From assembly GCA_036158955.1 (NCBI GenBank), contig JAYYFI010000018.1:35868-99867 (forward strand): 64,000 nt of DNA, written 5' to 3'. The stretch comes from Pseudomonadota bacterium (GTDB lineage Bacteria; Pseudomonadota; Gammaproteobacteria; Ga0077536). The position numbers and the translations under genes were made by a program. Within the stretch, counting starts at the first letter, position 1. The number at the start of each line of letters is the position of its first letter. The notes beneath the pieces were generated by a model. That model was not told where the DNA came from, made no database searches, and saw only the letters and a program-made list of their open reading frames with translations. This document shows positions 3,156-61,932 of this stretch, piece by piece.

Positions 3156-3171
3156 TACTCTCTCAACCATC

Positions 3172-4575: not shown

Positions 4576-4670
4576 ATAGACTCTTTTCCTGAAAGGATAG
4601 CTCCCTGGTCCAATCGATAGCCATTAAATTTCTATGGCTCAAGCTGTTTTTTGATGTTATTACTATACGT

Positions 4671-13912: not shown

Positions 13913-14953
13913 TTATTTTTTAAATGCTGGTAGTACGTTTTTAGCAAAGATATCCATGCTTTTGTGAATGAGGTTAGGTGCAAGGCCTGGTAACGCCATT
14001 TGTAATACCATATGGGTAATCCTTCCTCTGCCGACATACTCAGAAATCATTTGCTTCGCGTCATCTGGAGTTCCAACGATGGCGTCTTCCCCAAAAAAGT
14101 TGAAAGATTGTGCTTTTATCATCTCTTCAACAGTAGGTAGGTTTTTTAAAGCCTGATCATCACCCTCTTGGTCGTTTGCCTCTGCAAACCATTTTGCATA
14201 ACACTCGGTCAAATAGTGTAAACTTTGGGCGCATTCTTCCCAAGCTTGAGATCGGCTTTTAGCAACATATACTGCCCTTTGTGCTGCAATGTTATATTCT
14301 TTTGGGTCTCTGCCTGCTGCGGTTAAGGCACCGTCATAGGCAGCATTGAGCTCGGCGGGACCGACGCTTTGAAAATGAAAACCCATCTTTGCGGCTCTTT
14401 CGATTGCTTTAGGAGCAATAGCTCCTAACCAAATCGGAGGATGGGGTCTTTGAAGTGCGGGTGGAGATATTTTAATGTCTTTTAGATAATAATATTTTCC
14501 TTCGTGTGTGACTGACTCACCAGCCAACAGTTTCTGCACTATTGCCATTCCTTCTTGCAACCTGCCACCTCTCTCAGTATGCGAGATCCCTTGATCGGAG
14601 AATTCTTTCCTTCGATATCCTAAACCAACACCTAGGTCAAACCGTCCGTTTGACATTAAGTCCACCGTAGCCGTGTCTTCGGCTAATCGAATTGGATTAT
14701 GAAGAGGTGCAAGCACTAAAAAGGTGCCAATACGCAAATTCGTTGTTCTTTGAGATAAAGCGGCCGCAATAGCTAACAGTGAGGGAGAATATCCATCGTC
14801 AACAAAATGATGCTCTGTGAGCCAAGCATCGTCGTATCCTAACCCCTCTGAAGCGGATATTAAATCTAGATGGGAACGATAAAGTTGCTCCCAGGGAACT
14901 TTGTTAAAAGCAGGATTTCTAAAAGGCCAAAGGACGCCAAATCTTAAATTCAT
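13913..14953 (-). CDS. LLM-class flavin-dependent oxidoreductase (luciferase-like monooxygenase)
   Basis: 346 aa with a luciferase-like TIM-barrel profile (GYDDAWLTEHHF..., HPPIWLGA). It lies 9 nt downstream of the BVMO gene on the same strand. Confidence 0.85.
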   Translation of the reverse strand: MNLRFGVLWPFRNPAFNKVPWEQLYRSHLDLISASEGLGYDDAWLTEHHFVDDGYSPSLLAIAAALSQRTTNLRIGTFLVLAPLHNPIRLAEDTATVDLMSNGRFDLGVGLGYRRKEFSDQGISHTERGGRLQEGMAIVQKLLAGESVTHEGKYYYLKDIKISPPALQRPHPPIWLGAIAPKAIERAAKMGFHFQSVGPAELNAAYDGALTAAGRDPKEYNIAAQRAVYVAKSRSQAWEECAQSLHYLTECYAKWFAEANDQEGDDQALKNLPTVEEMIKAQSFNFFGEDAIVGTPDDAKQMISEYVGRGRITHMVLQMALPGLAPNLIHKSMDIFAKNVLPAFKK

Positions 14954-39215: not shown

Positions 39216-39995
39216 TTAAGAATTGATTATTGCGACTGCCCGAGTCCAGCCAGCAGAAGCTCCTCTTATTTTCACGGGAAAGCAACTTACCGTGAAACCT
39301 TTACTAGGTAACACTTCTAAATTATGCAGTTTTTCAAGGTGACAGTACCCAATCTCTTTACCTGCTTTGTGACCCTCCCATATAAGGGAGTTGTCCCCTG
39401 TTTCCTCGAATCGTTCTTTTGTATGGACAAATGGAGCATCCCATGACCATCCGTCTGTTCCAGTTAATCTCACGCCCCTTTCTAGCAGGTAAAGAGTTGC
39501 CTCTCTACCCATGCCACAACCACTAGCAACATAATCGTCATAACCATAACGTTTACCGGCTTTGGTGTTGACTAATACAATTTCTAGCTCTTTTAAATCA
39601 TGTTCTATTCTTTCTAATTCTCTTTTTACATCGTCTGGAGTCACAACATAGCCATCTTCAAATTCGGTAAAGTCAAGCTTTATGCCTGGCTGGAAACACC
39701 ACTCAAGAGGCACCTCATCAATCGTGATCGCGCGCTCTCCTTTATTCATTGTTGAATGAAAGTGATAAGGCGCATCTAAATGAGTTCCATTATGGGTCAT
39801 TAGATGAATCCATTCTAGAGCCCAACCTTCCCCTTCAGGTAGATCCTCTTTCTCGAGACCGGGGAAAAATTTTACTACATCTTCAGCAGAATCGTTATGA
39901 TTTAAATAATCTATTTTAGGCCTATACCCTGGAGGGTCACTTATAACGTCGTTTTCTAGGTGCATTGAGATATCAATAAAATTTTTGTTTGCCAT
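39216..39995 (-). CDS. cyclase-family protein (kynurenine-formamidase-like metal hydrolase)
   Basis: HxGTHxDxPxH motif ([13 protein letters not shown]) typical of the putative cyclase family. It lies downstream of the Mo-hydroxylase genes on the same strand. Confidence 0.8.
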
Positions 39996-40014
39996 TTTAC
40001 CTCTCCTTTAGAAT

Positions 40015-42894
40015 TCAGCTTTTACAATTTTCGATAATCTGTCTTAAATTTTTTGGGCTGAGATCACTAGATGTTATTTTAACGCCTATCGGTCTGAGCG
40101 CATCCTCAACGGCCCCCATTATGGCCGTACTGGTAGCTATACATCCATCTTCGCCCCCTCCTTTTGCTCCCACCTCCGTTGACGGTGATTTGGTTTCAAG
40201 ATGATGTATTTCGATTTCAGGGGTTGACCAAATGTTTGGAATTCCATATTCCTTGAGAGTTTTTTGTAACGGCCTGCCTTCTGAATCATAATCAAGTTTT
40301 TCGTAAAGGGTGCCACCAAGTTGTTGCATGATACCTCCAGTGATTTGTCCTTTTAGTAAAAGTGGGTTCAGAATTTTCCCATGATCTGCCACTATCCAAA
40401 TTTTTAATACCTCAACTTTTCCTGTACTTGGTTCAACCTCTACTAATGCTCCTTCCGCGCCATTTGAATGAGCAGGGTAAAACTGAGCTCTTCCGAGCTC
40501 ATCTGCTTTCCAATTTACCTGAGGATGTCTGTAGGTTCCCATTGCTTCAAGGGATGGCTCATCAGCTTGATCTAGGATAATTTCTGCCCCTGGATTGACA
40601 TAGACCGCGTATGCTAATTCTTTAAAAGTGATGGACTGATTTGTGATTTTATTTATAATTTTCCCATTGTCAAATAAAAGGGCTCCTTCGTCGCATTCCA
40701 AAAGAATAGCTGAGGCTATTTCTATTCGTTTTTTTATTTTTTTTGCAGCTTTTATTATAGCACCTACGGCAAACATTGCTCCTCGCGATGAAAAGGTTCC
40801 TGAACCCCAGGGTGTAACATTGGTATCGCCCCAACTAACTCCCACGTCTTCGACGCTGCATCCTAAGTATTCGGCTGTTACTTGGGCATAGACCGTCTCT
40901 ATCCCTTGTCCAATGCTTTGAATACCTGTCTGTACTCGTACGGAACCATCAGCGGCTAAACGAACGTTAACCGATTCATAATTTTGAAAAGCGGAGCTTG
41001 GGAAGGTTGCTCCAGCCGGTTCAATATAGGGAATAAGACTGATACCTAAAAATCGATTATTCGCTAACGCTTGTGATTGTTTTTCTCGGAGTGTCGATAT
41101 ATCCATAATTTTTTCAAGTTTTTCTAAGCATTCTCGTTGAGTTCCATTTTCTAGGATTGGCCCTGTTACTATTTGGTGTGGGTAAGACTTAAGAAGATTT
41201 TTCTTTCTAATTAAGATTTGATCCATTTCGAGTCTATCTGCGGCTAAATCTAATGTTCTTTCTATCAGCATATTAGCTAGGTCCTTGCCAAATCCGCGAT
41301 AAGCATTATAGGGCGCTTTATTGGTTACAACGCATCTTACCCTTGTTTTATAGTTTTCACATACGTAAGGTCCTAATGCAAAAGTACCGCCGTTCAAAGG
41401 CATTCCTAATCCGCAAGCTCTCTCTGCTCCATCGCATCCCATGTCAGCAATTATATCGGTTTCTAGAGCTTTCAATTGTCCGCTTTTGTCAAAAGCACCT
41501 TTAACTTTTGCGGTATAGTCTCGCGCTCCAAATCCTGCTTGAATCCATTCTGATCTTGACTCATGCCATCTGACGGGTTTATCCAGAATAATGCTTCCAA
41601 GTATGGGCAAGTATTCCGTGTCCATAGAAAGTTTGCTTCCAAATCCACCACCAACATCCCCAGCTATTATTTGTATTGAGTTCTCTCTAAGGCCAAAAAC
41701 TCTCGACAGGTAAATCCTGAATTGATGCGGTACTTGCGTTGATGCGTGGATAACCAGACTTTTTTCAAAGCTATCATATTCAGCTCTTACAGCTCTTGTT
41801 TCCATTGGCATAGCGCCAAATCGGTGAGAATCTATTGTTTCCTCTACAATCAGGTCGGCAGAGCTGAAAATGTTTTCAAGTTTGCCGTTTTCGAAGTTAA
41901 AATCTACTTGTACGTTATTGTCCCATGTGTCATAAAGTATTCCGTCTTCTTTTGCTTTAAGTGAATCACACGCTTTCGTATTGACAGGCAGATCCAAATA
42001 TTTAATTTTTACTTTTTCACCTGCAAGGTGAGCTGCGTCTAAACTCTTCGCTATGATTAAAACAACAGGCTCTCCAATAAAAACCACCTTATCGGTGGCT
42101 AATGGATACCTTTTTGGAAGTTTTAGGTCGAGTAAGTCCATGGTAGGTGAGATGGGTTCCCAGTAGTCCTGAGCTTCTCGCCCGGTTAATATTAACTCAA
42201 TATCTGGTTGCTGTTTCGCCTCTTGTGTATCTATTTCAACAATGGTGGCGTGAGCCCTATCCGAACGAAGAATATATGCAAAAAGATCATCATTTTTGAA
42301 AAAATTGTCGGTAAATTTTCCCCGCCCACTCATCAGTCGGCCATCTTCAATTCTAGTTACAGCTTCCCCTATTTTACCTTTTATGTTGGTTTCTTGATTT
42401 TCGAGTTCAACCAATGATTTAGCTTTGCCTGCCGCATGCATAACCGCGTGAATAATATTTTTGTAGCCAGTACATCTACAAATATTTCCAACTAAACCGT
42501 CTTTAATCGAGGGCTCTGTAACTTTATCTCCGTGTTTTTTTAACACATTACGAGCGCTCATAATCATCCCAGCAGTACAGTAACCACATTGAAGGGCATG
42601 ACAATTTGTGAATGAAGATTTTAGCTTTGATGTAAGAGGATCAGATTCAAGCCCTGCAATGGTTGTAATTTCTGATTGACTACATGTGTTAGTGAGTTTC
42701 AGACACGATTTTGTCAACAAACCATCTATCTCAACCGTGCAAGCACCACATGCACCTTCTTCGCAACCTATTCGTACACTTTTATCGCCTAGCTCTTTCA
42801 AAGTGTCGCATAAGTAAGCTCCCGCTGGAAAAGTTTTTTCTATTTTTTTACCATTTAAGGTGAACGAAATAGTTTCTTCTGTTTTGTTTTTCAA
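40015..42894 (-). CDS. xanthine-dehydrogenase/aldehyde-oxidase-family molybdenum hydroxylase with N-terminal fused 2x[2Fe-2S] domains (MOP/CoxS-CoxL fusion)
   Basis: N-terminal plant-type and four-helix 2Fe-2S cysteine clusters (C-x4-C-x2-C…C; CGYCTAGM…CRCTGY), followed by a large MoCo-binding aldehyde-oxidase/xanthine-dehydrogenase domain. 959 aa. Confidence 0.85.
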   Translation of the reverse strand: MKNKTEETISFTLNGKKIEKTFPAGAYLCDTLKELGDKSVRIGCEEGACGACTVEIDGLLTKSCLKLTNTCSQSEITTIAGLESDPLTSKLKSSFTNCHALQCGYCTAGMIMSARNVLKKHGDKVTEPSIKDGLVGNICRCTGYKNIIHAVMHAAGKAKSLVELENQETNIKGKIGEAVTRIEDGRLMSGRGKFTDNFFKNDDLFAYILRSDRAHATIVEIDTQEAKQQPDIELILTGREAQDYWEPISPTMDLLDLKLPKRYPLATDKVVFIGEPVVLIIAKSLDAAHLAGEKVKIKYLDLPVNTKACDSLKAKEDGILYDTWDNNVQVDFNFENGKLENIFSSADLIVEETIDSHRFGAMPMETRAVRAEYDSFEKSLVIHASTQVPHQFRIYLSRVFGLRENSIQIIAGDVGGGFGSKLSMDTEYLPILGSIILDKPVRWHESRSEWIQAGFGARDYTAKVKGAFDKSGQLKALETDIIADMGCDGAERACGLGMPLNGGTFALGPYVCENYKTRVRCVVTNKAPYNAYRGFGKDLANMLIERTLDLAADRLEMDQILIRKKNLLKSYPHQIVTGPILENGTQRECLEKLEKIMDISTLREKQSQALANNRFLGISLIPYIEPAGATFPSSAFQNYESVNVRLAADGSVRVQTGIQSIGQGIETVYAQVTAEYLGCSVEDVGVSWGDTNVTPWGSGTFSSRGAMFAVGAIIKAAKKIKKRIEIASAILLECDEGALLFDNGKIINKITNQSITFKELAYAVYVNPGAEIILDQADEPSLEAMGTYRHPQVNWKADELGRAQFYPAHSNGAEGALVEVEPSTGKVEVLKIWIVADHGKILNPLLLKGQITGGIMQQLGGTLYEKLDYDSEGRPLQKTLKEYGIPNIWSTPEIEIHHLETKSPSTEVGAKGGGEDGCIATSTAIMGAVEDALRPIGVKITSSDLSPKNLRQIIENCKS

Positions 42895-42899
42895 TATAG

Positions 42900-43703
42900 T
42901 TAATCCGCTCTGATTGTGTTACTCAAAATGCTCTCAAGAATATTTAATCTATGATCGAAATCGGCAAACTGATTTGTCATTTTAGTTATTTTGGTTGTTT
43001 TCACAAGATTCATTATAGTGGTTTTCATTCCACTTTTTTCTACTTTTTTAAATTCAAAAGGATAGTTAAACAATCCTCCGATGCAACCGCTTATAAGATC
43101 ACCTTTCTCAATGAGCGCCAAATTTACTAGTGCCAGATCATTTTTCTGTCTTGAAAATTCCTGATATGAGCTGGTTGTAATATCGTTTAAATTAGCTTCT
43201 GCCGATAAAAGCACGAAATCTTTAATGCCTCGAGATATTTTTTGTTCATACAAGGTTTTCAGTGAGATTTTTTTGATTTTCATCGATTTATCAACCAACT
43301 CAACTGTGGTTGACGCGGCAATTAGAGCAATAAGAAGGTTAGCTCTGGGCTCTCCCCAGCATAAATTTCCACCGAGAGTCGCTGAGTTCCTTACTTGGCA
43401 GTCTCCTAAACTATGGGCAGCTTCTATGAGAAATTTTGCATTACCCTGTACATTTTGGTCTTCAATAAGCTCCCTGATTGTTATCCCCGCTCCGATTGAT
43501 AAGATGCTGTTTTTCAGGCTGGTTTTCGAGTTGATTTCAGTTAAGTTTGATATATCGATCAAGTCGGTAATTTTTTTGCGGTAATTACCTTGGCGTATTT
43601 CAGGCACTAACGCTTGACCGCCACTCAATATAAGCCCCCCATTGCTTATAAGCTTGAGTGTCTCTCCGATGTCTTTAGGTGTTAATATTCTCGATATTGG
43701 CAT
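42900..43703 (-). CDS. FAD-binding subunit of molybdenum hydroxylase (CoxM/XdhB-like)
   Basis: FAD_binding_5-type motifs (LSGGQALVPEIRQG…AGITIREL…ATLGGNL). It sits immediately upstream of the Mo subunit on the same strand. Confidence 0.8.
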   Translation of the reverse strand: MPISRILTPKDIGETLKLISNGGLILSGGQALVPEIRQGNYRKKITDLIDISNLTEINSKTSLKNSILSIGAGITIRELIEDQNVQGNAKFLIEAAHSLGDCQVRNSATLGGNLCWGEPRANLLIALIAASTTVELVDKSMKIKKISLKTLYEQKISRGIKDFVLLSAEANLNDITTSSYQEFSRQKNDLALVNLALIEKGDLISGCIGGLFNYPFEFKKVEKSGMKTTIMNLVKTTKITKMTNQFADFDHRLNILESILSNTIRAD

Positions 43704-44337: not shown

Positions 44338-45219
44338 ATGAGAAATGCCGAAAAAATGGCTAATTTAGTCAAAACTAGCAAGGTGGGCGAGTTAGCATTC
44401 GAAGGAACCGCCTCTTTTGATGATGGTAGTGATACCACATACGGAGGGCATTTATTAGCCCAAGCGAGTTATTCAGCGAGTCAAACAGTGACTGATTCGG
44501 GAAAAAGGCTTCACGCTATCACTGCAAATTTTTTGCAGGCTGGTGTATCTGGAAAGAATTATTTATATAAGGTAGAGAAATTAAGTGACGGAAAATCGTT
44601 CTCCCGTCGAAATGTACGGGCTTTTCAGGACAATAGATTGATACTCCAACTTGTCGCATCTTTTTCTAGAGAGAGCGCTGGACTTCAATTCAAAGCTATA
44701 TCTCCACCAGATTTTTCATCTATTCCATCGCCAGAATCACTTCCTACTTACAATGTTTTAATGCGTAGCCTGGATAAAGTTCCGTTTAGAGAGGATTGGG
44801 CGTTTCGACAGCACGGTTTTGATCGTCGTATTATCAAGGCCCCCTGGACAAATGATCAACTTGACTTTTCAGATGGAATAAAAATGTGGATTAAGGCAGA
44901 TGGTCATGTGAATAAATTAAAAAACTTGCATGAGGCCCTACTTATTTATCAAAGTGATGAGTCTCTAGCGGATAATATCCTGATTCCCTTTGGACTTACT
45001 TGGAGCTCGCCAGAGGTATTTATGGTGAGTCTTGATCACTCAATGTGGATCCATCAACCAATTGACGTTAATGAATGGCTTTATATAGAGCAGGAGCCTT
45101 TAATTGCAATTTTTGAAAGAGGTTTAGCCAAAGCTCATGTCTGGAATCCCGAGGGCATTTTGGTAGCTACTTTTTTGCAGGAGGCGCTTTTTAGAGAAAC
45201 CAAAAAACGTTTAGTTTAA
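44338..45219 (+). CDS. tesB: acyl-CoA thioesterase II (TesB-like, double hotdog)
   Basis: 293 aa, the length of TesB-type double-hotdog thioesterases. The product call is by overall N-terminal sequence character and length. An alternative start is at M7 (44356). Confidence 0.75.
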   Translation: MRNAEKMANLVKTSKVGELAFEGTASFDDGSDTTYGGHLLAQASYSASQTVTDSGKRLHAITANFLQAGVSGKNYLYKVEKLSDGKSFSRRNVRAFQDNRLILQLVASFSRESAGLQFKAISPPDFSSIPSPESLPTYNVLMRSLDKVPFREDWAFRQHGFDRRIIKAPWTNDQLDFSDGIKMWIKADGHVNKLKNLHEALLIYQSDESLADNILIPFGLTWSSPEVFMVSLDHSMWIHQPIDVNEWLYIEQEPLIAIFERGLAKAHVWNPEGILVATFLQEALFRETKKRLV

Positions 45220-45887
45220 AATCCATGAAAATGTGCTACGTCTAATAATTCTTCCCTTCTCGTTTGCAATGTATTTTCAATAGCCTCTTTATTTTCATAG
45301 CCCATTGCCATACCTGATACAAGCACTTGGTCAGAAGGTATATTGAGATGTTCAAAAATTGGTTGTTGATAATTTATCCAAGCAGCTTGTGGGCACGTGT
45401 GCAGATTATATTTTCTAGCTGCAAGCATAACCGTTTGCATGAATAAACCAACATCTGACCAGCTTCCTTTGCCTAGATATGAATCGGTAGTAAAAAATAA
45501 TCCTACTGGAGCATCAAAAAAACAAAAGTTTCGCCTGTGTTGTTTGTGGGACTTTTCCCTATCACCTTTTTTTATTCCTAAAAGGCCGTATAAATCCCAA
45601 CCTATGCCCCTTCTACGGTTTCGATGAATTTCTTTCCATTCCGAGGGGTAATAATCATATTTGTCGTAATCGGTAAATTCTCCAAGGTCAAACATCCTTT
45701 GAACGTCCGTTACGATATTGTTTCTTGTCTCACCGGTGCAAATGTAGACATGCCAGGGTTGGGTATTCGTTCCACTAGGAGCTCGCTGTGCAATTGTTAG
45801 GATTTTGGTGATTGTATCTTTTGGAACAGGTGTATCCAAAAAAGCTCTTATAGAACGACGACTTTCAATGGCCTCTATCACATCCAT
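45216..45887 (-). CDS. nitroreductase-family flavoprotein
   Basis: N-terminal RRSIRAF motif and a nitroreductase fold. Its ATG (45885-45887) overlaps the TAA of the upstream Sir2 gene (TAATG). Confidence 0.8.
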   Translation of the reverse strand: MDVIEAIESRRSIRAFLDTPVPKDTITKILTIAQRAPSGTNTQPWHVYICTGETRNNIVTDVQRMFDLGEFTDYDKYDYYPSEWKEIHRNRRRGIGWDLYGLLGIKKGDREKSHKQHRRNFCFFDAPVGLFFTTDSYLGKGSWSDVGLFMQTVMLAARKYNLHTCPQAAWINYQQPIFEHLNIPSDQVLVSGMAMGYENKEAIENTLQTRREELLDVAHFHGF

Positions 45888-46654
45888 TATTTATTCTCCT
45901 GAAGATTGATGTATGCATTTGCAGTAATTTTAAGGTATTTAACATTTTCATAATTTACATTTTTCGGCTCTGGGTCAACGATTATAACTTTGGCTTCGTT
46001 TTGTTTAGCGATATCTAGAGCTATCTGTGTGAAGCCTACACTAAACGATGTACCTAAAAAAACGAATTCAGTAGCTTCACTCATTTTTTTTATAGCCTCT
46101 GAAATCCGATAGGATTCAGTGTAATATTCATCAAACAATAAGACAAACGGCTTTAAGCTGATTCCCAACTCAGGAGTTTTGGTGATATGAGATATCTTAA
46201 ATGCATCTAGTAGTTGATGTTTCAGTTTTTGTTCCGAAAGCTCACTATTGATTTTTTGCCATGGCGCCTCTAAAAGGTTTCCTAATGACTCATTTTCCCC
46301 TAAAAATCTTGAAACTTTGTCAAGTCTTCCGTGGATCGGGATATATTCTTTATTTCCAGCTTTGAAATCTAGAGTGTCGATATTTTGAGTGATTAAAGGC
46401 TTATTGGCTAACCATTTATGAACAGGATTGGGGTTAAGATTTCTGTATGTTGCAAACCTTTTAAAATACCAAAGCAAGAATTCGTCTGGTTGACTAAGAA
46501 ACATCGCTCTTGTTGCCATCTGCTGTGGAGTATAATTACTACTACCAATGGTCCAGAAGCCATCTTGTCCTCTGAAGGTCGGGATTCCGCTTTCCGCACT
46601 AACCCCTGCTCCAGTTATAAAAACTTTCTGTTTCGTTTTTTCTCCGAGTTCCAT
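45887..46654 (-). CDS. Sir2-family NAD-dependent deacylase / ADP-ribosyltransferase-like protein lacking the zinc-ribbon
   Basis: Canonical sirtuin motifs GAGVSAESGIPTFRG, QNIDTL, the catalytic H of IPIHG, FDE and GTSFSV. The Cys4 zinc module between HG and the FDE motif is absent. 255 aa. Confidence 0.75.
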   Translation of the reverse strand: MELGEKTKQKVFITGAGVSAESGIPTFRGQDGFWTIGSSNYTPQQMATRAMFLSQPDEFLLWYFKRFATYRNLNPNPVHKWLANKPLITQNIDTLDFKAGNKEYIPIHGRLDKVSRFLGENESLGNLLEAPWQKINSELSEQKLKHQLLDAFKISHITKTPELGISLKPFVLLFDEYYTESYRISEAIKKMSEATEFVFLGTSFSVGFTQIALDIAKQNEAKVIIVDPEPKNVNYENVKYLKITANAYINLQENK

Positions 46655-46808
46655 TTATAGAGTTGTTTTTTAAATAGAGTTTGAAATTTTTAATCTTTAA
46701 GTTATAGTTTATTAGACTGAAATCATGCTTGTAAAGTTCGGATTATATTAATAAATAATATGTAGGTTGATAATTTAATGTCTTAATTGCCATAAAGCGA
46801 GTACTGAG

Positions 46809-47648
46809 TTGCATAAGATAAATTTCAGAAAAAATGTAATTATATCCACTTGGACATTTACTTTATTGTGGTTAGCGCTTTCCTGTTTTACGTTCCCGGC
46901 ATTAAGTTTGACTCTCAATGAGGCAGCATCTGGAAAGCACCGATCGGCCAAAAATATCGCTCGTAATGATTTCCGTAATCCCGTTAAAACTCTTGATTTT
47001 TTTCAACTGAGAAAAGATATGACCGTGGTTGAATTGTGGCCGGGAAGCTCTGGTTGGTATACCGAGATTCTCGCCCCTTACCTTAAAGACAACGGATTAC
47101 TTTATACTGCTAATTTTGATGGGAGCACTGGTTTAGATTACTTCGAAAGGGGTGCGAGGCGTTTTCAAGAAATGCTTGATTCAAATTCATCAATATTTGA
47201 AAAGGTAATAAATCTACCACTTATGCCTCCAAAAGTAATTCCGTCAATACAGCCAGGTACGGTTGACCTAGTTTTGACATTCAGAAATATGCATAATTGG
47301 TTAATGCGAGATATGGAGGAAGAAGTTCTATCTTTCGCTTATTCTGTATTGAAGCCAAATGGTATTTTTGGTGTGGTAGCTCACCGTTCCAAGGATGATC
47401 AACTTGGAGAGTCAGGCGCTAGCACCGGCTACTTGGGGCAGTCCTTCGTAATTGACTTAGTAGAGAGTTCTGGTTTTAAATTGGTGGAGACATCAGATAT
47501 TAATTCAAATTTAAAAGATAGTACGGACCACCCTAAAGGAGTTTGGAGTTTGCCTCCTAGATTAAGAGAGGGCGACGGAAGTAAAGAATACTATACAAAG
47601 ATCGGTGAGAGTAATCGTATGACATTAAAATTTGTGAAGCTTAAATAG
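46809..47648 (+). CDS. putative class-I SAM-dependent methyltransferase with N-terminal signal peptide
   Basis: Hydrophobic N-terminus (TFTLLWLALSCFTFPALS) and a methyltransferase-like core (VVELWPGSSGWYTEILAPYL). A non-ATG (TTG) start is implied. Confidence 0.45.
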   Translation: MHKINFRKNVIISTWTFTLLWLALSCFTFPALSLTLNEAASGKHRSAKNIARNDFRNPVKTLDFFQLRKDMTVVELWPGSSGWYTEILAPYLKDNGLLYTANFDGSTGLDYFERGARRFQEMLDSNSSIFEKVINLPLMPPKVIPSIQPGTVDLVLTFRNMHNWLMRDMEEEVLSFAYSVLKPNGIFGVVAHRSKDDQLGESGASTGYLGQSFVIDLVESSGFKLVETSDINSNLKDSTDHPKGVWSLPPRLREGDGSKEYYTKIGESNRMTLKFVKLK

Positions 47649-47678: not shown

Positions 47679-49283
47679 CTAATATATTACGCAGTCGATG
47701 AAATTATTAGCTGCAACCTCGTCGCACTTAATTTTATATTCTCCAACACCTCCACAATAAGGGATAACTCTTCTAGCTTTGCCTTTAACGTTAGTTCCTG
47801 TGTACCACGAATCTGTTTTATGAACCAATGTTGATTCTGCAACTTCATCATGGTGTTCACCCCATTTTTGTTCAGATTGTTTTGAGGGTTCAATGGCATT
47901 TTTCCCCCTGCTGACAACGTGTTTAATGCAGTTTTCTATCCATGTCACTTGCTGGTCAACGCATGTAGGTACGTTACAAAAAGCAGCCCCGGGTGACATA
48001 GGGGCGTTAACCAGAAACATGTTTGGATAACCGTGAACTTGCATTCCTAAAAATGTACTTACACCGTTTTTCTGCCAGTCATCGCGGAGTAATCGCCTAT
48101 CTTTCCCATACAGATCTATAGCATTTAGGGCTCCTGTTCCCGCATCAAACCCAGTAGCAAGTATTAAAATGTCAAGATTAATGTCTTGGTCATTTAAAAT
48201 AACTGTCTGCCCCTCTATTTTTTTTATTGCATTCGTCCTAACATCAACCAAACTAACATTAGGTTGGTTGTACACTTCGTAATAATTAGTTTCCAGAGGA
48301 ACACGACGAGTTCCAAATCCGTAATCTTTAGGGACTAGTTTTTCCGCAGTTATTGGGTCTTTAACTCTTGACCTAATTTTGTCTCTTACAAATTGTGAAA
48401 TTTCCTTATTAGCCTCTTCCTCAAAAAATATTTCCGGAAACTGCCCGATCCAAAAACTTAGTGAACCTTCTTTCCAGTACTTTTCCATACAAGTCAATCG
48501 TTCCTCTTGGCTTAATTCATGAAAAGAACTTTCAAAGTCATAGAAGAACCCTGCGAAGGTATTCTGTCGAGTCTCCTTGATCTTGGGATACTGGCTCTTT
48601 AACTCTTTCATTTTGTTCTCGGTAAATTTTGGATTATTCATAGGAATCGTATAATTTGGAGTTCTTTGAAATACGGTAAGGTGCTTAACTTTGGGAGCAA
48701 TCGATTGTATTACTTGAATTCCCGTCGCACCTGTTCCGATTATCCCTACATTTTTTCCGTCGAGACTCAATCCTTTTTTTGGCCAGTGGCTTGTGTGGAG
48801 AATTTTTCCAGTAAATTCATTAATTCCTTCAATATCTGGTAACTGGGCTTTCGAAAGTAACCCGCTTCCCATCAGAAGAAACTGACTTTGTATTTCAAAA
48901 CCATCTTCTGTTACGACTTTCCAGGAATTCAATTTTTCTAAAAATTCCGCCTTAACTACTTTTGATTTAAACCGCATGAATTTTTTAAGATCGAATTTTT
49001 CGGCAACAAAATTAAGGTATCTTTCGGTTTCCTCTTGAGCTGGAAATTTTTCTTTCCAATTCCATTCTTCTAAAAGTTCTTCTGAAAAGAAGTATTGATA
49101 AACATAGGATTCAGAATCGGTGCGAGCACCAGGGTATCGATTCCAGTACCAAGTTCCACCAATTCCATCACCAGCTTCGAGGGTTTGCACAGAATACCCT
49201 AAACTAGTAAATTTGTGCGTTGCAAAAACTCCCGTAAAACCTGCTCCAACTATCGTTATATCAACTTGTTTGCTTTTTTTCAT
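47679..49283 (-). CDS. Baeyer-Villiger monooxygenase (second full-length paralog)
   Basis: GAGFTGVF, GGTWYWNRYPG, the BVMO fingerprint FTGKILHTSHWP, and a second GTGATG Rossmann motif. 534 aa. Confidence 0.9.
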   Translation of the reverse strand: MKKSKQVDITIVGAGFTGVFATHKFTSLGYSVQTLEAGDGIGGTWYWNRYPGARTDSESYVYQYFFSEELLEEWNWKEKFPAQEETERYLNFVAEKFDLKKFMRFKSKVVKAEFLEKLNSWKVVTEDGFEIQSQFLLMGSGLLSKAQLPDIEGINEFTGKILHTSHWPKKGLSLDGKNVGIIGTGATGIQVIQSIAPKVKHLTVFQRTPNYTIPMNNPKFTENKMKELKSQYPKIKETRQNTFAGFFYDFESSFHELSQEERLTCMEKYWKEGSLSFWIGQFPEIFFEEEANKEISQFVRDKIRSRVKDPITAEKLVPKDYGFGTRRVPLETNYYEVYNQPNVSLVDVRTNAIKKIEGQTVILNDQDINLDILILATGFDAGTGALNAIDLYGKDRRLLRDDWQKNGVSTFLGMQVHGYPNMFLVNAPMSPGAAFCNVPTCVDQQVTWIENCIKHVVSRGKNAIEPSKQSEQKWGEHHDEVAESTLVHKTDSWYTGTNVKGKARRVIPYCGGVGEYKIKCDEVAANNFIDCVIY

Positions 49284-49390: not shown

Positions 49391-50692
49391 ATGCATAAAA
49401 TAATTTTTATTGCTATTTTGATGTTAGGGAGTGGGGCGGCGTCCTCATACAATGCTAGTTTAATTGATCGAACTGAATTTGACCCATCAATTCAGCTTCT
49501 ACTTGGTCTTCAATATGGCTCGGGAATAAACTATGGTTTTGGGGCCATAGATTCGACTGATGAAAAGAGCCGATCAACGTTGTCGATAGCCGCAAAGCCT
49601 AGCTTGAAAACGCAAATAAATCTCCCAAGTTCAAATGTTTATAGTGGTATCTCTGTAGTTGCTGCTACAACCTCCCTGGATGGTGAAATTAGCGGTCAAG
49701 TTGCAAAATCCGGTGACCAAGCACTGGACTTTGATCATTCTTACATCGGATGGAAAAATTCAATTTTAGATATTTCAGTGGGGGCACAGGACTTTACTAT
49801 TGGTGATGGTTTCATAATAGGTGATGGAAATTATAACCAGGGGGCAGAAAATGGTCAGTATTGGATTGGTGCTTTCTCGGCGTGGCGAAATTCTTTAGTA
49901 GTTAGATTAAATTTAAATCAATTTTTAACAGAGTTTTTTTGGCTGAGAACTGATAATGATTTTCGGGATGGCAGAATAATTGGTGTCAATTTTGAGTATT
50001 TAGACGATATTTATGGTGAGTTGGGGTTTTCAACTGTTCACGTTTTAGAAGGTGACGCATTTAACCTAAGGGGCATGCAAGCTTGGAGCTTCCGAGTAGC
50101 AGACTTTCGTCCAGTTCAAATAGAAGGGCTAAAATTTTTTGGTGAATGGGTTTTACAAACAGGCGTGGATGATCAAGGCGGGGGTCGAAAAAATCAAGCG
50201 TTTGGTTGGTATATTGAGAATGAATACGAAATTCCTTTTGGTTCTTATAAACCTGTCATTAACTATCGCTATTCAAACTTGTCGGGGGATGATTTGGGTA
50301 CAGAGAAAAATGAGGGTTATCGCGGACTCTATTATACTATTTTTAAGAGAGGATGGGATACTTGGTATCAAGGTGAAATAGCCGGTGAATATCATCTTTT
50401 TAATAGCAATCAGATAACGCAGATGTTTAAATTGAAACTGCCTTTATCAAAAAATTCGTTTGCTGTGATTTACTATTATGACCACGAATTAAATGAAAAA
50501 CACTATTTTGGCCAAAGGGTGAATTCAAAGAAATGGTCTAGTGAATTAAACGTGGGGGTAGAACAAATGAAGTCCACTGGTTTTTACGGTTATTTTGGCC
50601 TTGCCCTTTCGAGGCCACGATCTGCTGCAAAGGAAATCTTTGGCGATGATGATTTTTTTGTAGTGCAGACTTTCTTATCATATAATTTTTAA
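49391..50692 (+). CDS. putative outer-membrane beta-barrel protein (porin / alginate-export-like), signal peptide
   Basis: Signal peptide, pervasive alternating aromatic/Gly-rich beta-strand pattern, and a C-terminal ...LSYNF (terminal Phe). 433 aa. It is divergent from a BVMO gene. Confidence 0.45.
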   Translation: MHKIIFIAILMLGSGAASSYNASLIDRTEFDPSIQLLLGLQYGSGINYGFGAIDSTDEKSRSTLSIAAKPSLKTQINLPSSNVYSGISVVAATTSLDGEISGQVAKSGDQALDFDHSYIGWKNSILDISVGAQDFTIGDGFIIGDGNYNQGAENGQYWIGAFSAWRNSLVVRLNLNQFLTEFFWLRTDNDFRDGRIIGVNFEYLDDIYGELGFSTVHVLEGDAFNLRGMQAWSFRVADFRPVQIEGLKFFGEWVLQTGVDDQGGGRKNQAFGWYIENEYEIPFGSYKPVINYRYSNLSGDDLGTEKNEGYRGLYYTIFKRGWDTWYQGEIAGEYHLFNSNQITQMFKLKLPLSKNSFAVIYYYDHELNEKHYFGQRVNSKKWSSELNVGVEQMKSTGFYGYFGLALSRPRSAAKEIFGDDDFFVVQTFLSYNF

Positions 50693-56227: not shown

Positions 56228-57193
56228 ATGACATTAATTTCTATGACTGACAACGGTCTTTTTTGCCCTATTGGCAAATTTTATATAGACCCTTATCGTG
56301 GTGTCGGGACGGCTATTATTACCCATGCGCACGCAGATCATGCCAAAATCGGCAGTGCAAACTATATCACTAACACTTTAGGAGTTCCTATTCTCAAGAA
56401 AAGATTAGGCTCAAAAATCAAAATTTTAGGCCTGGACTATGGTGAATCTATTATAATTAATAATGTAAAAGTAAGTTTGCACCCTGCGGGACATATATTA
56501 GGGTCATCACAAGTTCGTGTGGAGTTCGAAAATGAGGTTGTGGTTGTAACGGGAGATTATAAAAGAGCGCTTGATCAAACATGTGAAGGTTTTCAAAGTC
56601 TGCAATGTGATACATTGATAACAGAATCAACATTTGCTCATCCGATATATAATTGGCCTAGCTTTGATAGCGTGATCGCAGATATTTACGATTGGTGGCT
56701 TTGCAATCGAAAAAAAAAGATAACTAGCATACTTTTCGCGTATTCGCTTGGTAAAACTCAAAGAATATTGGCTGGCTTATCAGAATTTACTAATGACACG
56801 GCGCTTCTTCACGGCGCTTCGGTGGAGTTGACTCAGATCTACAGAGAAGCTGGAGTTAGAATGTTGCCAACCGTCCCAGTTTCACAATTAAAAAATAACA
56901 GCAAATTTGATGAGAGTTTGGTCATTGCTCCACCCAGTGCTTTTCGTTCGGCATGGCTCAAAAAATTTAAGGAATATAGAACGGGGTTTTGCTCGGGATG
57001 GATGTTGGTGAGAGGCAATCGTAGAAGAAATGGTTACGACCGTGGTTTTGTGATCAGCGATCATGCCGATTGGAATGGTTTGGTCCAAACGATAAAAGAA
57101 TCCAAAGCTGAAAATATTGTGGTAACACATGGTAGATCAGACATATTGATTCGATATCTGAAGGATATCAACTTAAAAGCAAACCATTTTTGA
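56228..57193 (+). CDS. ligase-associated DNA damage response exonuclease (metallo-beta-lactamase fold)
   Basis: MBL motif HAHADH, plus its position as the first gene of the Exo-Lig-Lhr-PdeM cassette. Confidence 0.8.
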   Translation: MTLISMTDNGLFCPIGKFYIDPYRGVGTAIITHAHADHAKIGSANYITNTLGVPILKKRLGSKIKILGLDYGESIIINNVKVSLHPAGHILGSSQVRVEFENEVVVVTGDYKRALDQTCEGFQSLQCDTLITESTFAHPIYNWPSFDSVIADIYDWWLCNRKKKITSILFAYSLGKTQRILAGLSEFTNDTALLHGASVELTQIYREAGVRMLPTVPVSQLKNNSKFDESLVIAPPSAFRSAWLKKFKEYRTGFCSGWMLVRGNRRRNGYDRGFVISDHADWNGLVQTIKESKAENIVVTHGRSDILIRYLKDINLKANHF

Positions 57194-57228
57194 TCTAGTC
57201 ATACAACGTACACATCCATTGGAAGCAA

Positions 57229-58842
57229 ATGAAAACATTTTCCCTGTTATACACAAAGTTGGACCAAACAAACTCGACGTTAGATAAGGTCGAAATTCTT
57301 TCTAATTTTTTTAAGAACGCTGACCATGAGGATGCTGCTTGGACAATATATATTATGATGGGCAAGCAGAAGAAACGTCTTGTTAAAAGATCAACTCTTG
57401 TGAAAGTTCTAGAGGATATTTCTGGGTATGAGAATTGGCTAATATCAGATGCTTATGCGACTGTAGGCGATTTTGCTGAAACGGTAGCGCTATTGTTGGG
57501 TCCAGATCGAATTGCGTTGAGTTCAGAATATAGTAATTCTATTGCTTACTGGATGAAAAACGAAATAGCCCCTTTGAATAAACAGCCAGAGCAAGAGCAT
57601 ATAAGAAAGGTTGGTTATTGGTGGAAAACTTTATCTCAGAATGATTGTTTTGTGGTCACAAAATTATTAACAGGCGGTCTTCGAGTTGGAGTTTCAAATA
57701 ATATTTTGGCAAGAGCGTTATCAGAATCTTTCGGGATTGCCAAAGACGTTATTATTCATAGACTGATGGGAGATTGGGAGCCTAGTAGTAATTTCTTTGG
57801 TGCGCTTATTAATCCAAGCAGTCAGTCGGATTATGTCTCTTTACCTTACCCATTTTTTTTAGCCTCGCCGTTGCAAATCGATCCAAATCAACTTGGAGTC
57901 CTGGAGAATTTTTCATTTGAATGGAAATGGGATGGAATACGTGCCCAGATAGTAAAACGAAACGAGTCACCCATAATTTGGTCAAGGGGGGAGGAGGTTA
58001 TTACGGATCAATATCCTGAGGTCATCGCGGATGTATTAAAACTCAAAAACTGTGTGATTGATGGTGAGATCGTAGCTTGGGGAAAAGACATTCTCCCTTT
58101 TTCAGAGTTGCAACGAAGATTAGGTAGGAAGAAAGTAACACAAAAAATCCTAGATGAAATTCCTATTAAATTTTTAGCCTTTGATTGTTTAGAGTTCGAA
58201 GGAATTGATATTCGTCGTGAGTCATATGAAGTTAGGAGAAAAAAATTACAAGACTTGCTTGGTTTAACCCGTTTAGATCGGTTAGAGATAGCGTCGAAAA
58301 TAGAAGCCTTAGACTGGAATGATGTAATCGAAGCGCGTGCTAAATCTAGATCAAGAAAAGTTGAAGGTGTGATGATTAAAAGTAAGTCTTCCCCATATTT
58401 AACAGGCAGAAAAAAAGGGTATTGGTGGAAGTGGAAGGTAGACCCCCTAACAGTTGATGCGGTTATGATTTATGCTCAAGCCGGTAGTGGCCGAAGGGCC
58501 TCGTTATTTACCGACTATACATTCGCCGTTTGGGATGATGAAAAGCAAAAACAAACACTACTGCCGATCGCTAAAGCTTATTCTGGCCTTACTCATACTG
58601 AGATAGAAGAATTAGATAAATGGATACGAAAAAATACTATAGAGAAATTTGGTCCTGTTCGTTCTGTCAAACCTTATCAAGTGTTTGAACTTTCGTTTGA
58701 TTCTGTTTCTCTTTCGTCAAGACATAAAAGTGGCTTTGCCCTTCGATTTCCAAGAATTTCCCGTTGGAGAAAAGATAAGGGGTTGAGGGATGTTAATCCT
58801 ATTCAAGTGATAAAAGACATTTTTGTTACTAACCAATCATGA
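57229..58842 (+). CDS. ATP-dependent DNA ligase (ligase-associated DNA damage response type)
   Basis: Adenylation motif I KWDGIR (EWKWDGIRAQIV) and an OB-fold C-terminal region. 537 aa. Confidence 0.9.
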   Translation: MKTFSLLYTKLDQTNSTLDKVEILSNFFKNADHEDAAWTIYIMMGKQKKRLVKRSTLVKVLEDISGYENWLISDAYATVGDFAETVALLLGPDRIALSSEYSNSIAYWMKNEIAPLNKQPEQEHIRKVGYWWKTLSQNDCFVVTKLLTGGLRVGVSNNILARALSESFGIAKDVIIHRLMGDWEPSSNFFGALINPSSQSDYVSLPYPFFLASPLQIDPNQLGVLENFSFEWKWDGIRAQIVKRNESPIIWSRGEEVITDQYPEVIADVLKLKNCVIDGEIVAWGKDILPFSELQRRLGRKKVTQKILDEIPIKFLAFDCLEFEGIDIRRESYEVRRKKLQDLLGLTRLDRLEIASKIEALDWNDVIEARAKSRSRKVEGVMIKSKSSPYLTGRKKGYWWKWKVDPLTVDAVMIYAQAGSGRRASLFTDYTFAVWDDEKQKQTLLPIAKAYSGLTHTEIEELDKWIRKNTIEKFGPVRSVKPYQVFELSFDSVSLSSRHKSGFALRFPRISRWRKDKGLRDVNPIQVIKDIFVTNQS

Positions 58843-61289
58843 GTATTACATTACCTACCAGTGTCAAAAATTTCTTTTTGCAGAAATCATGGAAGCCATC
58901 ATCATTTCAACAGAAAGCGTGGGATGCCTATCTAAAAGGATATTCTGGTCTGATCCATGCACCGACTGGGACTGGAAAAACGTTAGCTGCTTGTTTGGGC
59001 CCATTTATAGAAAATCTCAATAATTTTTCAACAGTAAAAACTGGACCCAGATTAATCTGGATAACGCCTATGCGAGCTTTAGCCAGCGATACAGAAAAAT
59101 CGTTGCGCGAAATATGCGAAGGAATCGGGTTACCGTGGGAAATAAAAAGACGAACTGCAGACACTAGTAGTAGAGATCGATTAAACATTAGAAAAAAGCC
59201 TCCTCAGTTACTTATTACCACACCCGAATCTTTATCATTGATGCTTAGTTATGAAGATTTTGAAAAACGACTTAAAACCACACAGTGCGTTATAGTCGAT
59301 GAATGGCATGAGTTGTTAGGCTCAAAAAGGGGAGTGCAACTTGAGTTGTGTCTGGCTCGAATTAGGGGTGTAAATAAAAATTTAAAAACCTGGGGTTTGT
59401 CCGCAACTCTTGGAAACGTAACAGAAGCTTTGGACGTTCTTTTAGGTATGAAGCAAATAAAGCAAAAAAAAATAATCAGCTGTGATCAATACAAAAAGAT
59501 AGACATTGTTTCCTTGATACCAAAAAAAATAGAGCGTTTTCCATGGGCTGGACATCTTGGTTTGCGTTTACTCCCCGATATACTCGAAAAATTAGGATCA
59601 GCAAAAAGCACCTTAATCTTTACAAATACAAGAGCACAAGCGGAACTTTGGTTCGAGGCATTGCTGAAGTCACAACCGGAATTAGTTGGTCGAATTGCCT
59701 TGCATCACGGTTCTTTAGACAAAAGTATTAGGCGCCGTGTCGAGGAAGGTTTAAAGTCAGGCGAATTTAGATGTGTAGTTTGTACTTCATCTCTAGACCT
59801 CGGGGTTGATTTCAGTCCCGTAGAGCAAGTAATACAAATTGGTTCTCCAAAAGGGATCGCCAGGCTTTTACAAAGAGCGGGTCGATCGGGCCATCGGCCA
59901 GGAGTCGCGAGTAAAATTATTTGCGCTCCAACCAATGCCCTAGAATTAGTTGAGATTGCAGCAGCACGTTTAGCCTTTGAAAAAAATTTAATTGAAAAAC
60001 GAGTTCCGTTGCGTCTATGCCTTGATGTTTTAGCGCAACACTGTGTCACGTTAGCTACCGGTTCCGGTTTTGAAGAGAAGCAGCTTTTTAATGAAATCCA
60101 AAAAACCCATGCTTTTTCAAATCTGACTGAAAAGCAATGGAGATGGATGCTCAATTTTATTACTAGTGGTGGACCAGCTTTAAATAACTACCCCGATTTT
60201 GAAAAAGTAGTTAAGAGTAATAAATTGTATAAAATTAAAAGTGTGAAATGTGCAAGGTTACACCGGATGTCGATAGGCACAATTGTTAGCGATTCGCTCA
60301 TGGAATTGAAATGGATTCGAGGACAAAAGATAGGCTCTATCGAGGAGACTTTTATAGGCAAACTCAAAAAAAATGATTGTTTTTTATTTAACGGAAAGTA
60401 TTTGCAATTGGTACGTGTCAGGGAGATGACGGCTTATGTAAAAAAAGCAGGAAATAAAGGAAGATTTGTTCCTAGATGGTTAGGAGGAAGGGCGCCGTTG
60501 TCCACCGAGTTATCTTCATTTACACAAGCGTTATTAAGTGAGCCAATTGACTATACTATTGAGGAAATAGAGGCAATTACTGATATTTTAAAGACTCAAA
60601 AGAAAATTTCAGTCTTACCTAGTTCGGACGAATTATTGATTGAAAGTTGTTCATCAAAGGAAGGTAGGCATTCATTTGTTTTTAGTTTTGCTGGTAGGCA
60701 TATAAATGAGGGTCTTGCTATTTTAAGCGCATGGCGTTTGTCTCGAACGCAAAAAGATACATTCAAAGTATGGGCGAATGATTATGGATTTGAGATTCTA
60801 TCCCTCGGGCAAAAAGCGATTGATATCCGAGAGTTGGTGCAAGCCCTTAGTATTGATTCGTTATTAAAAGATTTAATTGCAAGTATTAATAGTGCGGAGA
60901 CAAGCAAAAGACATTTTAGAGAAATTGCTCAAATATCAGGGCTAATATTCACAGGTTACCCTGGGCGCGGAAAATTGACTCGACATCTTCAAGCCTCGAG
61001 TGGAATAATCTATGACGTATTGCAGAAGTATGATGGAGATAACCTTTTAATTGAGCAGGCGCTGGAAGAGGTTCTGGTAAGTGAATTTGAGTACAAGCGT
61101 TTAAAAAAATGCTTAACTGATATTGCAAGTAAAAAAGTGAAAATCATTGAAACATCAAATTTCTCACCGTTTGCGGTTCCGATATGGTCAGAAAGGATAC
61201 GGTCTCAGACCGTTAGTTCCGAAAGTTGGGAGGCTCGTATTAAGCGTATGATTAATAGAATGGAAAAAAAGCTTACCTATAATGAATAA
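58839..61289 (+). CDS. Lhr-like DEXH-box ATP-dependent helicase (ligase-associated)
   Basis: Walker A APTGTGKT, DEXH (VIVDEWHEL) and helicase C motifs (QRAGRSGHR). Its start overlaps the ligase stop by 4 nt. Confidence 0.85.
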   Translation: MSITLPTSVKNFFLQKSWKPSSFQQKAWDAYLKGYSGLIHAPTGTGKTLAACLGPFIENLNNFSTVKTGPRLIWITPMRALASDTEKSLREICEGIGLPWEIKRRTADTSSRDRLNIRKKPPQLLITTPESLSLMLSYEDFEKRLKTTQCVIVDEWHELLGSKRGVQLELCLARIRGVNKNLKTWGLSATLGNVTEALDVLLGMKQIKQKKIISCDQYKKIDIVSLIPKKIERFPWAGHLGLRLLPDILEKLGSAKSTLIFTNTRAQAELWFEALLKSQPELVGRIALHHGSLDKSIRRRVEEGLKSGEFRCVVCTSSLDLGVDFSPVEQVIQIGSPKGIARLLQRAGRSGHRPGVASKIICAPTNALELVEIAAARLAFEKNLIEKRVPLRLCLDVLAQHCVTLATGSGFEEKQLFNEIQKTHAFSNLTEKQWRWMLNFITSGGPALNNYPDFEKVVKSNKLYKIKSVKCARLHRMSIGTIVSDSLMELKWIRGQKIGSIEETFIGKLKKNDCFLFNGKYLQLVRVREMTAYVKKAGNKGRFVPRWLGGRAPLSTELSSFTQALLSEPIDYTIEEIEAITDILKTQKKISVLPSSDELLIESCSSKEGRHSFVFSFAGRHINEGLAILSAWRLSRTQKDTFKVWANDYGFEILSLGQKAIDIRELVQALSIDSLLKDLIASINSAETSKRHFREIAQISGLIFTGYPGRGKLTRHLQASSGIIYDVLQKYDGDNLLIEQALEEVLVSEFEYKRLKKCLTDIASKKVKIIETSNFSPFAVPIWSERIRSQTVSSESWEARIKRMINRMEKKLTYNE

Positions 61290-61932
61290 CCTTCAAATAA
61301 AAATTTTTGGCGAAGATTTAATTTTAGATCCTAGGCGAGCTATGGTTTGGCCATCTGAAGAATCAATATTTATCTCTGATACTCATTTTGGTAAAAGTTC
61401 TATATTTAGAAAGTATGGCTTGCAAATACCCGAGGGCAGCGATGAAGAGATGTTGATATCTATCTCTAATTTGATAAAAGATTACCAGTTAAAAAGGTTG
61501 TTTATTCTAGGTGATTTTGTACACGGAGCCCTGCCTGAAGGAGATAAGTTTTTTGAACTTTTTAATACATGGAGGAGAGCTCATAACCATATTTCGGTGG
61601 TACTAATTCGGGGTAATCATGATGTGGATTTGCAAGATCTTTGCTTGAATAGATTAGAGATTTATGATCGATATATGGTTAAGTCTGCTGAGTTGGTCCA
61701 CGATCCTGCAAGCGCCACCAAAAACGTTTATGTATCAGGCCATATTCATCCTCACTTGAAATTCCGGTCCTCGCAAGAATCTGTAAGAATGCCGATTTTT
61801 TGGTGTTCTAGCAAAATGCTTATTCTGCCAGCATTTGGTTTGTTCACCGGCGGTAAAAATATAGAATTATCGTATGATGAGGTTGCGTACGCAATTTTTC
61901 CAGATGGTTCTGATATAATCAAGATTTCATAA
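61282..61932 (+). CDS. pdeM: ligase-associated DNA damage response endonuclease PdeM (calcineurin-like metallophosphoesterase)
   Basis: Metallophosphoesterase motifs (ISDTHFG…GDFVHG…GNHD). It overlaps the helicase stop by 8 nt. Confidence 0.8.
   Translation: MNNLQIKIFGEDLILDPRRAMVWPSEESIFISDTHFGKSSIFRKYGLQIPEGSDEEMLISISNLIKDYQLKRLFILGDFVHGALPEGDKFFELFNTWRRAHNHISVVLIRGNHDVDLQDLCLNRLEIYDRYMVKSAELVHDPASATKNVYVSGHIHPHLKFRSSQESVRMPIFWCSSKMLILPAFGLFTGGKNIELSYDEVAYAIFPDGSDIIKIS

Follow-up and report, generated by a model that had tools for sequence, protein, structure and literature searches.

A cysteine-free CobB-type sirtuin overlapping a nitroreductase gene: probably two housekeeping-type neighbours and not a new two-gene system

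What kind of sirtuin is encoded by a gene that has lost the cysteines of the zinc ribbon, and does its one-base overlap with a nitroreductase gene make the two a functional unit? Both questions are raised by a locus in a stretch of 64,000 nucleotides (64 kb) from the gammaproteobacterial assembly GCA_036158955.1 (lineage Ga0077536; contig JAYYFI010000018.1, positions 35,868 to 99,867, forward strand), which is referred to below as the window. A preliminary description of this DNA, made from the sequence alone, had likened the sirtuin to macrodomain-linked SirTM ADP-ribosyltransferases and to the Sir2 effectors of anti-phage systems, and had considered the pair as a possible cobamide-salvage module or as a NAD-consuming stress or defence pair. 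The analysis presented here points to a simpler situation: the locus probably holds two ordinary genes of housekeeping type, a zinc-ligand-free CobB-type sirtuin and a generic nitroreductase, which came to be adjacent by gene packing. The features on which the argument is built are listed below with their coordinates in the window, strand, identity and, in brackets, the basis of the call.

45887-46654, minus strand: Sir2-family gene of CobB/class III type, 255 amino acids (aa), stop codon included (open reading frame, Pfam, NCBIfam, PDB, Foldseek, AlphaFold2)
45216-45887, minus strand: NfnB-type flavin mononucleotide (FMN) nitroreductase gene, 223 aa (Pfam PF00881, 2.4e-31; full-length PDB matches)
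45885-45889, minus strand: TAATG stop/start junction from Sir2 to nitroreductase (read from the sequence)
45896-45900 in plus-strand numbering, minus strand: AGGAG Shine-Dalgarno sequence for the nitroreductase, within the 3' end of the Sir2 gene (sequence; 8-nucleotide spacer to the ATG)
46457-46468, minus strand: YFKR (Y63...R66), the YxxR acyl-pocket motif (translation; invariant in the family alignment)
46328-46333, minus strand: HG with the catalytic histidine H108 (translation; invariant in 121 family sequences)
46157-46327, minus strand: cysteine-free module at the position of the Cys4 zinc ribbon, residues 110-166 (alignment and AlphaFold2 model)
46127-46135, minus strand: FDE (residues 174-176) in place of the canonical FGE substrate-binding loop (translation; invariant in the family)
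46655-46808, no strand assigned: 154-bp intergenic region between Sir2 and a divergent 279-aa gene, the presumed promoter region of Sir2 and nitroreductase

The 255-aa Sir2 and the 223-aa nitroreductase were found as open reading frames (ORFs) exactly at the coordinates previously given, and the sequence itself shows their TAATG overlap, in which the TAA that ends the first gene (45889-45887) and the ATG that begins the second (45887-45885) have one base in common. The tight coupling to a gene of nitroreductase fold, as had been claimed, was thus borne out by this one-base overlap together with the Pfam Nitroreductase match. The Sir2 protein matched Pfam SIR2 (PF02146) with an E-value of 2.3e-24 and 86.8 bits against a cut-off of 24, over profile positions 1-178 of 180. 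All catalytic motifs listed earlier are present in its translation, namely GAGVSAESGIPTFRG (residues 15-29), QNIDTL (90-95), HG (108-109), FDE (174-176) and GTS (201-203), with the caveat that the canonical sirtuin motif is FGE, from which FDE departs. The absence of the Cys4 zinc module also holds, since the translation contains no cysteine at all. Upstream of the Sir2 gene, promoter-like matches in the intergenic region (minus strand, 46784-46755 and 46735-46706) were of consensus level and not above chance, and the promoter and terminator scan as a whole gave no more matches than expected from shuffled sequence.

By sequence, by profile and by predicted fold, the closest matches of this sirtuin are the class III/CobB deacylases. 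Its seven NCBIfam matches were all to CobB-type deacylase/deacetylase models (CobB/PRK00481), and all of them fell under the cut-offs (NF040867, prot_deacyl_CobB, 120.6 vs 320; NF001753, 126.1 vs 243; NF001752, 114.9 vs 221). Comparison with PDB sequences by phmmer ranked Sir2Af2/Af1 first (~1e-21), followed by SIRT5 (1.5e-15), Sir2Tm (1.1e-11) and E. coli CobB (2-3e-11), with PfSir2A, SIRT1, SIRT4 and SIRT6 further down; a profile of the family reproduced this ranking with stronger values (Sir2Af1 2.4e-27, SIRT5 8e-19, CobB 1.4e-18). An AlphaFold2 model built from a 27-sequence alignment reached a mean pLDDT (the predicted score in the local distance difference test) of 86.8 and a predicted template modelling (pTM) score of 0.83. 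When compared with PDB by Foldseek, its best 50 matches were all deacylase sirtuins with query TM scores of 0.62-0.71, Sir2Af2, Sir2Af1, Sir2Tm, CobB, SIRT5, PfSir2A and SIRT4 being among them. In the Pfam scan of the protein, PF02146 was the only match and no match to SIR2_2 was obtained.

The residues on which catalysis would depend are retained throughout the family. H108, G109, N91, D93, G15-S19 and G201-S203 were invariant in 121 family sequences, and so were Y63 and R66, which are aligned with the Tyr/Arg pair of Sir2Af1. This YxxR motif we take to be the class III pocket recognising acidic acyl groups (SIRT5 Y102/R105; CobB). Like the class III sirtuins (CobB of E. coli and Salmonella, Sir2Af1, SIRT5), the protein is a single domain of about 250 aa with the GAGxSAESGIPTFRG, TQNID, HG and GTS motifs and the YxxR pocket. 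Unlike them, it is devoid of the Cys4 zinc site, which is replaced by a longer cysteine-free module, and it carries FDE for FGE and a 4-residue TIGS insertion in the cofactor loop; from CobB it differs, moreover, in staying far under the NCBIfam CobB cut-offs. We infer both its deacylase activity and its acyl preference from these residues: the gene would encode a CobB/class III-like NAD+-dependent lysine deacylase of canonical fold, with H108, the N91/D93 nicotinamide pocket and Y63-x-x-R66 intact, and the YxxR pocket suggests the removal of acetyl and probably also of acidic acyl groups (succinyl, malonyl).

The zinc ribbon has been replaced and not simply deleted. From H108 of HG to E176 of FDE there are 69 residues, as compared with ~47-63 in most Cys4-bearing relatives. 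The earlier description had allowed for a different metal-binding insertion at this place, which would make the protein an ordinary CobB. Such an insertion is unsupported, because the 121 family sequences have no conserved set of C/H/D/E ligands in residues 110-170, where only D112 is conserved (88%). What is invariant in the replacing segment is A130-P131-W132, L148, L149, F152, I154, P161 and S166. In the AlphaFold2 model, the module is built of two strands (109-116 and 127-129), followed by a short helix (131-134) and another helix (141-151), with pLDDT of 85-97. It looks held together by hydrophobic packing, and the sirtuin is presumably independent of metal; its small domain would be organised without zinc, around the invariant hydrophobics (APW, LL, F, I) of the longer cysteine-free module.

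To place this protein among its relatives, a word-indexed protein search was used, which returned 1958 proteins at E <=1e-5; the family is described here from the best 120 of them. These are 57-99% identical, ~250 aa long (nearly all 238-263 aa) and, where named at all, annotated as 'sirtuin' or 'NAD-dependent deacetylase'. Members of the family carry from 0 to 4 cysteines, with no conserved cysteine position. When one genome per GTDB species was scanned, 455 stretches with relatives came to light, of which the best 80 loci were examined. They belong almost wholly to marine or saline taxa, the closest being a Methylococcaceae TMED69 metagenome-assembled genome (MAG; 87% identical), along with Rhodobacteraceae, SAR116, OCS116, Porticoccaceae, Pelagibacterales, Pseudoalteromonas, Kangiella, Bermanella, Polaribacter and a Spirochaeta MAG. 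Identity across phyla within the family is 55-64%, high for a sirtuin, which suggests strong constraint, horizontal spread or both. In viral contigs the family was not found, only sirtuins of <=38% identity being present there. Furthermore, clustering of the neighbouring genes of the best 80 species loci gave no conserved neighbour of the sirtuin, the most frequent being a LysE-like membrane protein (13/80).

An exhaustive search of 50%-identity representatives reduced the family to about one full-length representative (P0049, 318 bits), after which the scores dropped to ~135-120 bits. The next full-length relatives, 33-42% identical, carry a GSxNYxP insertion, the signature WFDEYY and RC-x3-4-C ... 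CPxCG, that is, a Cys4 ribbon, and their best NCBIfam matches are also to CobB-type models. WFDEYY, which includes FDE, is common to this wider clade, being found in most of the 33-42% identical relatives. These Cys4-bearing sirtuins (P0149 of Lentisphaeraceae; P0152 and P0270 of Kariarchaeaceae, named 'SIR2 family NAD-dependent protein deacylase') are uncharacterised, and they differ from the family of the window in having kept the Cys4 ribbon and in having no APW / LL-F-I module.

A rough neighbour-joining tree, calculated without support values and taken as an indication only, placed the marine cysteine-free sequences in one clade with a few other cysteine-poor ones (P0123, P0134, P0139, P0199), and additional cysteine-free sequences were dispersed among the Cys4-bearing ones. 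Because of this scatter, the loss of the ligands looks derived and recurrent in the WFDEYY radiation, with Cys4-bearing WFDEYY relatives as the source. The family itself is tight, mostly marine and stand-alone. As to the wider clade (P0149-P0267), its members have WFDEYY and not WFGE, most being Cys4 proteins whose first cysteine pair, C-x3-4-C, is unusual. In about a dozen of its 59 full-length representatives the module contains at most one cysteine, and this points to a zinc site that was lost repeatedly. In the literature searched, we found no specific report on zinc-free CobB-type sirtuins and no biochemical study of the cysteine-free family; the only related item was an in-silico note on some sirtuins of acetic acid bacteria that are without zinc-binding cysteines (PMC11820453).

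The product of the downstream gene is an NfnB-type nitroreductase and not BluB. It matched Pfam PF00881 with 109.6 bits against a cut-off of 23.5, over all 167 profile positions (1-167/167). Full-length matches in PDB were 3gr3 (2.7e-64, residues 2-220), 7dp0 (3.4e-41; 7dp0-7dp2 ~1e-40) and 2wzv (2e-23); the likeness to these NfnB-type enzymes (3gr3 of Bartonella, 7dp0, M. smegmatis NfnB 2wzv) extends over the full length, with no difference that matters. By comparison, the BluB structure 2isj was matched with an E-value of only 1.2e-4 and over residues 3-67 only, and the BluB equivalog TIGR02476 with 42.2 bits against a cut-off of 150 over residues 3-64 only, so that the suggestion of a BluB made in the preliminary description was not sustained. 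The family of this protein (~224 aa) is very large, with at least 8000 matches, and relatives of 62-69% identity occur in Sneathiella and in many metagenomes. The gene would thus encode a generic NfnB-type NAD(P)H:FMN nitroreductase. On its other side it is met by a convergent tesB-like acyl-CoA thioesterase gene (44338-45219, plus strand), the 3' ends of the two overlapping by 4 nucleotides, which leaves no space for an intrinsic terminator of either gene.

The two genes are adjacent on every contig with an identical Sir2, in the two closest species genomes (L007, Sir2 87% identical; L008, 80%) and in metagenomic relatives down to 74% Sir2 identity (P0010, P0012). The one-base overlap follows from match coordinates in L007 and L008 and from called genes in L090 and L091; in the P0012 group (L087-L089) the genes overlap by 4 nucleotides (ATGA). 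Wherever the pair occurs, it lies in a syntenic block of a Baeyer-Villiger monooxygenase (BVMO), the 279-aa gene, Sir2, nitroreductase, the tesB-like gene and the molybdenum hydroxylase. Outside these relatives, none of the 78 other species loci with a Sir2 (55-64% identical) has a nitroreductase within 5 kb of it, and none of the nitroreductase orthologues of 64-69% identity (Sneathiella limimaris and two other lineages) has a Sir2 beside it, their neighbours being unrelated. In L011, a gammaproteobacterial MAG with a 61% identical Sir2, an SRAP/YedK-like gene (3323-3901, minus strand; N-terminal MCGRF) stands between Sir2 and the tesB-like gene, in the position that the nitroreductase has in the window.

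Since synteny in these genomes covers all 8 genes of the neighbourhood, nothing additional can be read from the conserved pair. The overlap itself may be regarded as ordinary packing, because overlaps and short gaps are the norm across this compact window: its coding fraction is ~91%, and among 33 same-strand adjacent ORF pairs, 10 overlap and 20 are <=20 nucleotides apart. Given that the pair is confined to one bacterial lineage (Sir2 at least 74% identical), the adjacency of Sir2 and nitroreductase is most likely fortuitous rather than the mark of a new two-gene system. The earlier description had itself regarded the adjacency as fortuitous if the pairing recurred in no other genome, and essentially this was found, close syntenic relatives being the only carriers. 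Its statement that no Sir2 and nitroreductase pairing had been described agrees with the literature searched, where we found neither an operon nor a pairing of this kind. Both genes are probably co-transcribed in this one marine gammaproteobacterial lineage, which would be a consequence of gene packing and would require no dedicated two-component system.

Some observations weigh against so simple a picture and are gathered here. The overlap was kept across ~26% Sir2 divergence and in two geometries (TAATG and ATGA), and the nitroreductase has its own strong Shine-Dalgarno sequence inside the Sir2 gene; on both grounds a lineage-specific functional link is conceivable. With regard to the sirtuin, canonical sirtuins were reported to require the zinc module for deacetylase activity (PMC12700824), so that a cysteine-free form need not be active. 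Moreover, the invariant G-to-D change in FGE, together with NCBIfam CobB scores below the cut-off, allow a shifted substrate or reaction.

The first of the alternatives, a lineage-specific functional pair, would have the sirtuin deacylate or regulate the nitroreductase, or would join the two in a response to redox or nitro-aromatic stress, with a link between the NAD+ and NAD(P)H pools. We consider it unlikely. The stop/start overlap is indeed retained in every member of the lineage examined, yet the entire neighbourhood around it has been retained equally well. The embedded Shine-Dalgarno sequence and the convergent tesB-like gene, whose overlap with the 3' end of the nitroreductase makes the locus look like a closed two-gene transcript, have to be seen against the many overlaps and short gaps elsewhere in the window. 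A loose precedent is offered by SirTM operons, which commonly include flavin oxidoreductases and are connected with oxidative stress (PMC4518038). The pair discussed here is absent from all 78 other species loci and from the three other lineages of the nitroreductase. Two housekeeping-type genes brought together by packing therefore stay the preferred explanation.

Less probable still is that the sirtuin serves a stress or anti-phage system as its NAD+-consuming effector (NADase or ADP-ribosyltransferase), in the manner of ThsA or DSR. The absence of the zinc module is a feature that it has in common with the SIR2 domains of ThsA, DSR2 and FAM118 (PMC12700824; PMC10981675), and the FGE-to-FDE change could alter peptide binding. 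These proteins, however, belong to the SIR2_2 family and are multi-domain or filament-forming defence proteins, whereas the sirtuin of the window is a single PF02146 domain; none of the SIR2_2-type proteins was among its 50 best fold matches in PDB. Its nearest matches in sequence, profile and fold are Sir2Af1/Af2, SIRT5, CobB and Sir2Tm, and the resemblance to ThsA and DSR, on which the earlier comparison rested, is only superficial. In addition, its zinc module was not removed, a well-ordered segment of similar or greater length being found instead, and the protein has neither a sensor domain nor a partner nor a conserved neighbour. PADLOC defence models gave no match to either the Sir2 protein or the nitroreductase at E up to 0.1. 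A ThsA/DSR identity was accordingly rejected.

The context in the window likewise provides nothing for a NAD-consuming stress or defence pair, the other option raised initially. Pfam scans, which took in essentially all ORFs of at least 150 aa (51 ORFs) and a few shorter ones, identified no recognisable defence gene, and no defence island or compositional anomaly was seen around the pair. As for SirTM, the small domain of these sirtuins coordinates zinc and QG replaces their HG; they are linked to an adjacent macrodomain, GcvH-L and LplA2 (PMC4518038). The loss of zinc ligands had been interpreted as a SirTM pattern; the situation is the opposite, because SirTMs retain the zinc domain and the sirtuin of the window, which belongs to the same Sir2 superfamily, has HG and no zinc ligands. 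A SirTM identity was thus rejected, the macrodomain gene being absent as well: no macro, GcvH or LplA domain was present in the scanned ORFs of the window or among conserved neighbours in the 80 loci.

A minimal module for the lower ligand of cobamides, in which a BluB-like 5,6-dimethylbenzimidazole synthase would act with a CobB-type substitute of CobT, could appeal to the nitroreductase fold of BluB, to the historical finding of CobB as a CobT suppressor and to the weak N-terminal match of TIGR02476, but it is hardly credible, given that the BluB model fails, that the Rfam scan of the 64 kb had no match and therefore no cobalamin riboswitch, that no cob, cbi, btu or other cobamide-salvage gene was present among the Pfam-scanned ORFs of the window, and that the pairing is absent outside one lineage.

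With the Sir2 and nitroreductase module not holding up, nothing new follows from the pairing, and the sirtuin would act, like CobB, as a stand-alone housekeeping enzyme. What deserves to be recorded is that several hundred mostly marine species have a highly conserved CobB-like sirtuin with intact catalytic residues from which the zinc ligands are gone. This family is a real variant, already deposited in databases and unstudied as far as the searched literature goes. If active, it would offer a natural test of the zinc-module requirement in canonical sirtuins, a scaffold for enzymology that is compact and free of metal, and a possible case of trace-metal economy in ocean bacteria. A further step, which we put forward only tentatively, is that the family is a naturally zinc-independent and fully active canonical deacylase, with a hydrophobic module containing a helix in place of the Cys4 ribbon, which horizontal transfer has carried between pelagic Alpha- and Gammaproteobacteria, Bacteroidota and Spirochaetota and which is possibly zinc-sparing in zinc-poor seawater; if true, this would contradict the textbook need of canonical sirtuins for the zinc module in deacetylation. 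To a specialist on sirtuins the cysteine-free, CobB-like family would come as a mild surprise; it opens no long-standing question.

Apart from the pair, the window contains catabolic and oxidoreductase genes, GlnD, a pair of extracytoplasmic function (ECF) sigma and anti-sigma factors and a ligase-Lhr repair cluster. Divergent from Sir2, beyond the intergenic region, lies the 279-aa ORF (46809-47648, plus strand), which has a hydrophobic, signal-peptide-like N-terminus and a sub-threshold match to Methyltransf_12; it adjoins Sir2 throughout the lineage (76-99% identity) and not elsewhere. On the minus strand at 39216-43703, an FAD_binding_5 subunit, a fused 2Fe-2S/molybdopterin subunit (hydroxylase of the xanthine dehydrogenase family) and a putative cyclase follow one another with gaps of 5 and 19 nucleotides; in related contigs, synteny with the Sir2 block extends to all three.

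At 56228-61932 (plus strand), a 321-aa ORF without Pfam match precedes genes for an ATP-dependent DNA ligase, an Lhr-type helicase (WH_Lhr, DEAD_assoc) and a metallophosphoesterase. Ligase, helicase and metallophosphoesterase genes overlap by 4 and 8 nucleotides, and the arrangement looks like the known Lhr-ligase repair cluster. At the thresholds used, three further ORFs had no Pfam match: 1914-3170 (minus strand, 418 aa), 5967-6449 (minus strand, 160 aa) and 49391-50692 (plus strand, 433 aa). The window is rich in oxidative catabolism, with two Baeyer-Villiger-type flavin monooxygenases and two luciferase-like monooxygenases (14996-16597, minus strand; 47679-49283, minus strand; 956-1957, plus strand; 13913-14953, minus strand), two family III CoA-transferases, several short-chain dehydrogenases/reductases and hydrolases. 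In L001, a pilon-polished ENA contig with an identical Sir2, the aldehyde dehydrogenase and the BVMO (1-1393 and 3373-4976) were called as several short pieces; as both genes are intact in the window, the split genes most likely reflect frameshift errors of a long-read assembly and not pseudogenes.

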